IMG/VR virus record: IMGVR_UViG_2690316086_000017
Origin: a virus
Lineage: Duplodnaviria > Heunggongvirae > Uroviricota > Caudoviricetes
Reading direction: 5' to 3' (one strand)
Length of the DNA: 8,108 nt
This document shows positions 1,087-1,620 of this stretch, piece by piece. The notes beneath the pieces are model-generated. The model was given only the letters and a program-made list of their open reading frames with translations, searched no databases and was not told the origin of the DNA. Numbering within the stretch: position 1 is the first letter of the stretch; every line of letters begins with the position of its first letter. The translations under genes and the position numbers were made by a program.

Positions 1087-1575
1087 TCAGTGTTTTAAGC
1101 CAGTTGGTGGCTTAGGGATGGGGAACCGATTTGAGGAGACATTAGCGGCATTGAGTTTTTTAACCTCTTTTTTCCCAATGCTGCCGATCTTGCGGTGGGT
1201 GAACTGGGCCAGCTTAAACGCGGCATCTAAAGCCAGTTTTGGATCTGTGTCCATGTTGTCAATCAGTATCCTGCCCATTGCTTTGATGGGGTCGGGTAGG
1301 CCGTTATCCATCATCTCAATGGTGTTAATTGATGCCCGTTCCGGTGTAACTTTTTCGGTAACTTTCTTTGTAACTTTTTTCGGTTTTGTAACCTGAAAAG
1401 TTACATCAGAAGTTACAGCCTTAAGATACTTTTTCACCTCCGGATCATTGGATAGCTGCCAGCCTTTAACCCTTGCAGTCTTTTCGCTGTATCCCGCATG
1501 TATCGCGGCTTCCGTTGGATTTGTGCCCTTTGATAACGCATCAGCAAACCGCTTTTTTTTGGTCGTTAATGCCAT
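1087..1575 (-). CDS. terS: terminase small subunit (TerS, Terminase_2-like N-terminal HTH)
   Basis: N-terminus MALTTKKKRFADALSKGTNPTEAAIHAGYSEKTARVKGWQLSNDPEVKKYL matches the hallmark TerS motif (LT.KQ..F......G.N.T.AAI.AGYS.KTA). ATG at 1575 with GAGG 7 nt upstream. The track's longer version starting at 1713 is rejected because it overlaps the upstream ORF. Confidence 0.8.
   Translation of the reverse strand: MALTTKKKRFADALSKGTNPTEAAIHAGYSEKTARVKGWQLSNDPEVKKYLKAVTSDVTFQVTKPKKVTKKVTEKVTPERASINTIEMMDNGLPDPIKAMGRILIDNMDTDPKLALDAAFKLAQFTHRKIGSIGKKEVKKLNAANVSSNRFPIPKPPTGLKH
1343..1416. repeat. phased GTAACTTT(T) direct repeats plus an inverted GTAAC/GTTAC pair inside terS
   Basis: GTAAC at 1346, 1358, 1370 and 1388 (12-bp phasing for the first three); GTTAC at 1400 and 1412. 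They encode the lysine-rich KVTKKVTEKVT segment of TerS. Confidence 0.6.
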
Positions 1576-1597
1576 GCAAAAACCTCGTTTTGAGGGG

Positions 1598-1620
1598 GTG
1601 TAACTTTTCGTGTAACTTTT
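1598..1620. repeat. two GTGTAACTTTT direct repeats in the terS upstream region
   Basis: GTAAC at 1600-1604 and 1612-1616, 12 bp apart, 25-45 bp upstream of the terS ATG; same motif as the intragenic copies. Confidence 0.55.

Follow-up and report, generated by a model that had tools for sequence, protein, structure and literature searches.

A candidate satellite packaging site with small-terminase recognition elements beside a putative cos site shared with Shiga toxin phages

Introduction

The 8,108-nucleotide stretch in IMG/VR record IMGVR_UViG_2690316086_000017, which we refer to as the window, includes a gene (terS) for a small terminase subunit (TerS) that has copies of a short GTAAC/GTTAC motif, regularly phased, both within it and just upstream. 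The question raised by this locus is what those repeats are for. An earlier note on this DNA suggested that they are a candidate pac site or an array of TerS-binding sites. Comparison with related loci leads us to a reading that we hold with a probability of about 0.7, namely that positions 1343-1700 are a packaging site of a satellite, in which an array of TerS elements resembling lambda cosB would give satellite-specific packaging from a cosN that is shared with phages. All genes of the window are on the minus strand, and distances given with a plus sign are counted from the putative cut in the cos site, in the direction of terS. The features are listed in Table 1.

Results and Discussion

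The repeats

The eight GTAAC/GTTAC cores that had been listed are all present, with six on the plus strand (1346, 1358, 1370, 1388, 1600 and 1612) and two on the minus strand (seen as GTTAC on the plus strand at 1400 and 1412), and the spacing is as stated, with 12 bp inside runs and a step of 18 bp to 1388. The motif is also over-represented, as GTAAC occurs 23 times in the window as against 11.6 +/- 3.3 in shuffled sequence, with 23 reached in 0 of 200 shuffles, and 8 of the 23 are inside 271 bp (binomial P = 5e-7). The true repeat unit is longer than five bases. It is GTAACTTTT, which with at most one mismatch has eight matches in the window, and seven of these are in 1346-1620 (P = 4e-10), five direct (1346, 1358, 1370, 1600 and 1612) and two inverted (1396-1404 and 1408-1416). 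The best copies, taken on the terS strand, are AAAAGTTACAC.

Taken in the direction of terS, the order is two direct non-coding copies (1620..1598), a gap of about 180 bp, two inverted copies (1416..1396), and then four direct copies, the first weak and the other three good (1392..1343). The pair at 1600 and 1612 lies between the GAGG ribosome-binding site and the intergenic block upstream. The intragenic copies do encode a TerS linker, as had been pointed out, and it reads A-VT-SD-VT-FQ-VT-KPKK-VT-KK-VT-EK-VT-PE. There are natural length variants of terS in E. coli, encoding 154 and 158 aa, that are short of 12-bp units by one or two. One further GTAAC, at 1717-1721, is upstream of cosN in a 53-aa open reading frame (ORF); it does not have the flanks of the element and was taken as chance.

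A probable cos site beside the repeats

The block at 1622-1700 is just beyond the region covered by the earlier note (1343-1620) and is absent from that note. When 900-2200 was used to search phage records this block was the sole region to give matches, being about 80% identical to non-coding DNA in 36 records of Shiga toxin (Stx) or lambdoid phages. The homology to phages ends at 1621-1622, which is the point where the repeats begin. In phage 1717 the homologous block is between the HNH endonuclease gene and terS, and 1622-1700 also aligns with the corresponding block of five further relatives (alignment A2).

The significance of the block comes from the Stx1 siphophage Lys8385Vzw, for which 10-nt 3' cohesive ends, CGCCCCCCCT, have been mapped with PhageTerm (PMC7946995). 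Its TerS and leader are of the phage 1717 type. The Lys8385Vzw record ends ...GGACACCGCCCCCCCT and begins CTCACGCAGAGAAAAAA / CTCACGCAGAGAAAAAATTCCCGTTTCAGGGCAGTTAACATGTTAAC..., and this junction is inside the conserved block of alignment A2. The equivalent junction in the window is ...GGACAC CGCCCCCAGT CTCAT..., to be compared with CGCCCCCCCT|CTCAC in the phage, and the island block as a whole is GGACAC-CGCCCCCAGT-CTCATTCATAGAAAA. By this homology cleavage would be at 1648/1649, and the packaged left end of the island would have 1648 as its first base and run toward terS. The conserved cosN homologue is then 28 bp away from the first repeat. In close variants of the island the overhang is mostly CGCCCCCCGT, identical to that of phage 1717.

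An HNH gene is upstream of cos-terS in the phage relatives L001, L004 and L090-L093, and also in the satellite L006. In satellites there is a conserved ORF of about 53-56 aa in the place where phages have HNH (1703-1864, minus strand, in the window and 1228-1398 in L009). Its product is probably a coiled coil with the C-terminus ...EVEGLISLLGE(Q), and between its stop codon and the G-run at the cos block there are 2-3 bp.

Related loci: register to the cut and type of element

For comparison we used TerS homologues that are about 41-62% identical to that of the island, placed in their genomic context. The 10 loci compared are from E. coli, Salmonella, Hafnia, Morganella, Proteus, Enterobacter and metagenomes, and for the Hafnia locus (L004) the register was counted by hand. 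Those of intermediate diversity were obtained by protein-homologue searches and from the contigs that encode the homologues. A scan of viral contigs with TerS gave near-identical islands and the Stx-phage class only, with nothing intermediate, and in a scan of genome contigs with the TerS alignment no locus was confirmed.

The loci fall into two classes by the residue at TerS position 39. Five have W, C or Y in the motif VKG-x-QL, and they are the window, a second E. coli satellite with HNH, terS and capsid-like genes (L006), a Salmonella satellite (L009), a metagenomic satellite-like locus (L010) and a Hafnia prophage with the order HNH-terS-terL-protease/MCP-portal (MCP, major capsid protein). 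The other five have VKGSQL and are phage 1717 and prophages of Morganella, Proteus and Enterobacter plus one further prophage, all with the order HNH-terS-terL (terL being the gene for the large terminase subunit, TerL).

The first element starts +33 to +36 from the putative cut in every one of the 10 loci. Each of the five W/C/Y loci has the cos block, with AAAAGTTACAC at +33 to +35, and in each the stretch of terS that codes for the linker contains GTAACT copies in inverted orientation and, after them, direct copies of AAAGTTACA. The five S loci share this cos block, each with a GTTAAC or ATTAAC element at +34 to +36, and three of them have additional GTTAAC, GTTAAT or ATTAAC copies in the linker-coding region. 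Element type thus goes with TerS type, GTTAC with VKG[W/C/Y]QL and GTTAAC with VKGSQL. Phage 1717 and Lys8385Vzw have five copies of (T)GTTAAC(A), at +34, +42, +110, +133 and +148, and no AAGTTAC, and the island has the reverse pattern. AAGTTAC is nearly restricted to a zone of about 300 bp in each locus of 3-10 kb, with from 4/5 to 7/7 of the copies inside it (P from 4e-4 to 3e-10).

The position of the array relative to the gene is quite variable. Phage 1717 and L006 have their ATG at +228 to +230, and their distal cluster (+84 to +192) is in the non-coding leader, with L006 having in addition two KVT copies within terS. In loci with the ATG at +57 to +76 the distal copies are at +212 to +300 and within terS, the exception being L093, which has two upstream copies only. 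The array tracks cosN and not the gene.

Locus L006 (4348-5474 of GCA_034224985.1) represents a second type of E. coli satellite, with its own HNH gene, which as called runs over the cos block and the first element. Its 228-bp leader, before a W-type terS, has five or six copies of AAAAGTTACAC and one of TGTTAACA. Two further loci, L097 and L098, in which TerS has H in the recognition helix, were sought as a possible third type of element; they have no HNH gene, cos block or repeats and were used as negative controls only.

These comparisons bear on the suggestion of a pac site. In P22, SPP1 and the pac-type Staphylococcus aureus pathogenicity islands (SaPIs) TerS binds a site in terS, TerL cuts imprecisely nearby and packaging is headful. 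It is reasonable to think of this for the window, as its TerS is in the Terminase_2/SF6-SPP1-like helix-turn-helix (HTH) family, the studied members of which are from pac phages (PMC4737164), and the array is partly intragenic, as in several pac phages. However the array adjoins the homologue of a cos site that has been mapped and has defined 3' ends of 10 nt (PMC7946995), an HNH endonuclease gene is directly upstream in every phage relative that has the cos block, with terS and terL following, the first element keeps its +33 to +36 register to the cut, and the two related TerS loci without HNH have neither block nor repeats. We consider a pac site very improbable. That part of the earlier suggestion is not supported, and it is the other part, a putative TerS-binding array, that is well supported by the comparison, from the non-coding element at a fixed distance from cos, the covariation with TerS clade and the synonymous conservation discussed below.

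An operator is another possibility, with a regulator, perhaps TerS itself, acting on the terS operon, or the repeats could fold into a hairpin in the mRNA and so adjust its translation or stability, in either case with no role in packaging. The register in the relatives follows the cos cut while the start codon varies from +57 to +230, and the arrays of phage 1717 and L006 are far upstream of the ribosome-binding site, neither of which fits well with regulation of this kind. S-clade arrays also include some, such as the three direct copies of L090, in which the hairpin partner is absent, and no sigma-70-like promoter was found on either strand in 1000-2600. On the other hand the two upstream copies in the window are 25-50 nt before the terS start codon, the linker mRNA does fold (z = -3.8), and autoregulation by DNA-binding packaging proteins is plausible, although this last would also be compatible with binding of TerS for packaging. 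We regard a purely regulatory role as unlikely.

Conservation of DNA or of peptide

Loss of the repeats at synonymous sites had been named beforehand as an outcome that would speak against a binding array. No such loss was seen, and the repeats are conserved. We used a codon alignment of six W/C/Y-clade terS genes, in which synonymous sites are otherwise scrambled, and counted the sequence pairs with identical codons. For valine the codons are identical in 31/31 pairs in repeat columns and in 4/15 in other columns, and for threonine in 38/46 and 12/45 respectively. For all residues together codon identity is 92.5% in repeat columns and 49.8% elsewhere (column-level Mann-Whitney P = 8e-4). The Val-Thr codons are GTA-ACT at inverted elements and GTT-ACA at direct elements, AAA-GTT-ACA is conserved synonymously, and at the second inverted position the GTA-ACT pair is invariant across the W/C/Y relatives.

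The reading frame is not conserved in the same way. The intragenic GTTAACA and ATTAACA of L092, a Proteus prophage, fall in a different frame and give M-L-T and I-N-I, and in L090 and L091 the GTT-AAC element is read as V-N. The fixed codons, the change of frame, the non-coding copies and the disorder predicted for the linker together indicate that it is the DNA element that is conserved, and the KVT peptide repeat looks like a by-product of it.

These data also bear on an explanation at the level of protein or replication slippage only, in which the KVT linker is selected or a 12-bp unit is expanding, with the upstream copies due to coincidence or local duplication. Variation in unit number in E. 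coli (154, 158 and 162 aa) is what one would expect of slippage, and VT dipeptides are kept throughout the W/C/Y clade. Against this, every relative has the same 11-mer in non-coding DNA, where its position is conserved, codon choice is fixed in the repeats while V and T codons vary freely elsewhere in terS, and the motif is retained in L092 despite the different frame. The arrays are wholly non-coding in phage 1717 and mostly so in L006, and in the linker, for which disorder is predicted, no other residues are conserved. It is hard to give this explanation any real credence.

The TerS protein

TerS (162 aa) matches Pfam PF03592 (E 4.8e-11) and, over its full length, phrog_641 (E 6e-44). The nearest solved structure is that of the SF6 G1P small terminase (3zqp), with E 0.0025 over the N-terminal HTH. 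AlphaFold2 gives HTH helices at residues 5-15, 20-27, 31-42 and 45-55, and a helical core at 96-126, C-terminal to the linker. The predicted recognition helix is that at 31-42, EKTARVKGWQLS, which includes W39, so that the residue distinguishing the two classes is within it. The linker cannot be aligned between the clades except for VT or VN dipeptides. The island TerS is 46-47% identical to the TerS of the candidate helper.

A model for packaging of the island

The site as we see it would have two parts. The cosN part (core 1622-1700, with the overhang equivalent at 1649-1658) would be common to Stx siphophages of the HNH/TerL type, and would be cut by the TerL and HNH nuclease of a helper phage. 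The cosB-like part, with consensus AAAAGTTACAC, would be just inside the left end and comprise the two non-coding copies at +29 to +51 and a distal cluster at +233 to +305, in which two copies are inverted and three or four are direct. The satellite TerS, which is expected to form a ring, would dock on these phased elements through its HTH domains, the 12-bp spacing being about one helical turn and equal to the expected spacing of adjacent HTH motifs on the ring. In the SF6 G1P family the distance between adjacent HTH motifs of the ring is about one turn of DNA, and it has been proposed that about 100 bp are wrapped (PMC4737164); a similar wrapping may apply here. TerS so docked would position the helper TerL on the neighbouring cosN.

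The resident Stx phages would use GTTAAC with an S-type TerS, and the island GTTAC with its W-type TerS (W39). With two types of element and TerS, one cosN could be addressed by two orthogonal TerS/cosB pairs, and packaging would be steered to satellite concatemers. As the leader is short, with the ATG at +74, the distal half of the array falls inside terS, where its presence in the coding sequence of the disordered linker would force the VT(K) peptide repeats.

Stx siphophages are the likely helpers. Among the 60 island-bearing genomes listed 59 have one or more further cos-like sites, the genome identical to the window included, while any cos-like site of that kind is found in only 463 of 5426 E. 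coli genomes; these counts ignore lineage.

Several points weigh against this model. The isolated DNA-binding domain of SF6 TerS binds DNA non-specifically (PMC4737164), so that sequence-specific reading of a core of 5-6 bp by this family is not established, and HK97 TerS, of another family, threads DNA through its channel with no wrapping (PMC11331095). The consensus for integration host factor (IHF), WATCAANNNNTTR, was not found anywhere in the window, and hence not between the two clusters; N15 also has no IHF site (PMC9026076), so that such a site is not essential to arrays of the cosB type. The covariation of element and TerS amounts to one clade split, or about one evolutionary event, and gives limited support. 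Pairing of inverted with direct copies can give a stable hairpin in the mRNA (z = -3.8), and some of the synonymous constraint seen in the W/C/Y clade could be due to this. There is no HNH gene next to the island cos, the 53-aa ORF (1864..1703) being there instead, and the HNH of the helper would have to be borrowed. Finally the overhang of the window differs by one base, at 1651, from those of close variants and phage 1717, as it has A (CGCCCCCAGT) where 10/10 close IMG/VR island variants have C (CGCCCCCCGT); this may be a recent cohesive-end mutation of this copy.

We also put forward, tentatively and at slightly less than even odds, that terS and its leader are a self-contained and portable cassette for packaging specificity, with the linker-coding DNA doubling as part of the array of TerS binding sites. 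The HTH reader (position 39) and the address (GTTAC or GTTAAC, differing by one base) would then be inherited as one unit of about 550 bp adjacent to a universal cosN. Satellites of Shiga toxin-producing E. coli (STEC) would by this means gain a packaging channel orthogonal to that of the Stx phages they parasitise, and the KVT or KVN peptide repeats would be a by-product of the DNA sites, not a selected feature of the protein.

Comparison with known packaging systems

One of the closest resemblances is to lambda, in which cosB has the order R3-I1-R2-R1, with one element inverted, and is bound by the winged HTH of gpNu1, the lambda TerS (PMC9026076). In both cases a nicking site is followed by several short TerS elements inside the left end and before terS, at least one of them inverted (PMC9026076), and the proximal element is tens of bp from the cut, with lambda R3 at +50 to +65 and the island pair at +29 to +51. 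The differences are that lambda has a Nu1 TerS and 12-nt 5' ends, whereas the island has a ring TerS of the Terminase_2/SF6-like type and a 10-nt 3' overhang in an HNH-associated system, and that the island has no IHF consensus, has elements of 9-11 bp at a 12-bp phase, and has its distal cluster in terS.

EcCICFT073-type phage-inducible chromosomal islands (PICIs) also keep the cosN of the helper, with a different cosB that redirects packaging to the island (PMC6092414, PMC6739421, PMC9026076). They encode Rpp and no TerS, with Rpp forming heterodimers with lambda TerS, and repeated R sequences have not been found in their cosB. The island in the window, in contrast, has a complete TerS of its own and an evident repeat array, and its helper would be an HNH/Terminase_2 Stx siphophage, where those of the EcCICFT073 type are lambda or phi80.

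In pac SaPIs a TerS encoded by the satellite redirects the helper TerL, and SaPIbov5 has a helper-like cos site and a homologue of a capsid protein, Ccm (PMC5052747, PMC8569155). The island joins both strategies, with its own TerS and a cos site, while pac SaPIs are headful. To our knowledge neither a satellite-specific TerS nor a satellite-specific cosB has been described for the cos-mediated packaging of SaPIbov5.

SPP1 and SF6 G1P share the TerS fold family with the island, and have short direct repeats (pacL and pacR) to either side of the terS start, where protection is regularly spaced (PMC4737164), but these are headful phages, and the island has a precise cosN adjacent and sharply conserved elements. 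HK97 is similar in having an HNH-assisted cos with a 10-nt 3' overhang and a TerS site 15-29 bp in from the cut, which matches the first element of the island in side and roughly in distance (PMC11331095). It differs in having an unrelated TerS family and a single 15-bp site. HK97 was considered as a model for the locus and set aside because of its unrelated TerS and the lack of a repeat array at its left end.

The island and its other features

The window is 100% identical to an insertion of about 8.3 kb, with putative ends, in E. coli 07_3636, where the site is a tRNA-Pro gene between yejM and yejO. It is a complete PICI-type satellite of STEC, about 8.3 kb in length. The features by which PICIs are recognised are present, namely an integrase, AlpA, a replication protein with an adjacent iteron origin, a packaging/capsid-interference module and a size in the range of about 8-15 kb, and there are no lysis or tail genes in the window. 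Of the 5426 complete E. coli genomes about 220 carry the island, in every case chromosomally, and these carriers are mostly STEC of O26, O111 and O157.

The capsid-fold protein aligns solely with the MCP half (residues 302-636) of the protease-MCP fusion of phage 1717, at 23% identity (E 1e-19). It resembles Ccm of SaPIbov5 and is a candidate redirector of capsid size.

Table 1. Features of the window in order of position
Feature	Coordinates	Strand	Remarks
Capsid-fold protein, 308 aa	927..1	-	Final gene of the island
53-aa ORF after terS	914-1075	-	
terS	1087..1575	-	162 aa; Terminase_2
Flexible TerS linker, residues 56-90	1306..1410	-	pLDDT 42-59 (residues 67-83 below 50); its coding DNA contains most intragenic elements
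Four direct elements in terS, CAGGTTACA (weak), AAAAGTTACA, GAAAGTTACC, AAAAGTTACAC	1343..1392	-	At +257, +275, +287, +299; code (K)KVT repeats
Two inverted elements, GTAACTTCT, GTAACTTTT (minus-strand reading)	1396..1416	-	At +233, +245; code V-T-S, V-T-F
N-terminal four-helix HTH DNA-binding domain, residues 1-55	1411..1575	-	AlphaFold2 pLDDT 85-93
Two tandem non-coding R-like elements, AAAAGTTACAC-G-AAAAGTTACAC	1598..1620	-	12 bp apart; +29 to +51 from putative cut
cos core (cosN region)	1622..1700	-	G-run, partly symmetric GC-rich segment, GGACAC, overhang, CTCATTCATAGAAAA
Putative 10-nt cohesive end, CGCCCCCAGT	1649..1658	-	Aligned with Lys8385Vzw CGCCCCCCCT; placed by homology only
Three small ORFs		-	Listed between helicase and terS
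AAA_25/RepA helicase	3957..2557	-	
DUF4222 protein		-	
AlpA	6370..6164	-	
Integrase	8108..6867	-	

The 53-aa ORF that follows terS (914-1075, minus strand) has a weak profile match to the TerS core of phrog_641 (positions 89-126, E 8e-7). It was considered as a TerS fragment and rejected, as despite that match it has no BLAST similarity to the island TerS. ORFs of 49-51 aa are in the equivalent position after terS in L009 and L010, and in L012 a TerL gene comes after the small ORF, so that this module is also present in phage-like loci. The product may be a terminase accessory or interference protein.

Directly downstream of the RepA/AAA_25 helicase gene there are iterons, CCCCACT(TTT), in two 45-nt blocks (2429-2473 and 2514-2558), which are probably the replication origin of the island. 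Further along there are Rfam matches at gathering level to C4 antisense RNA (77.6 bits) and the isrK Hfq-binding RNA (66 bits), at 5166-5253 and 5275-5351 respectively, both on the minus strand. They are flanked by a 46-nt direct repeat of 76% identity (5058-5103 and 5418-5463), which may contain C4 target sites, and in the identical genome of E. coli 07_3636 Icd-like and ash-family genes are annotated near this region. This suggests an antisense-RNA immunity module of the P1/P7/P4 type in a PICI-like island. An element containing a palindrome, (A)TGGTAATTACCAT, has two perfect copies 32 bp apart (5569-5580 and 5601-5612), the second overlapping the start of an ORF for a 57-aa Arc-like repressor (5611-5784, plus strand), and the pair is probably an operator pair of a divergent regulatory region.

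Conclusions

The general kind of site is already known, both a cos site with TerS recognition elements and a satellite-specific cosB. In the literature searched we found no description of element arrays or of a TerS binding site for the HNH/Terminase_2 cos family, of a Gram-negative PICI that pairs its own TerS and its own cosB beside a helper-type cosN, or of recognition elements that lie within the DNA coding for a TerS linker.

Our analysis defines candidate recognition elements for a cos system of the Terminase_2 family, and describes a protein-coding linker whose sequence appears to be dictated by overlapping DNA sites. The difference of one base in the element and one position in the recognition helix could serve in engineering of packaging specificity, and the pairing of element and TerS could allow helper-satellite pairs to be predicted from sequence. 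For STEC it provides a concrete model for the selective packaging of a common satellite by siphophages of the Shiga toxin type, in which the cut site would be shared and specificity would come from an orthogonal TerS/cosB pair.

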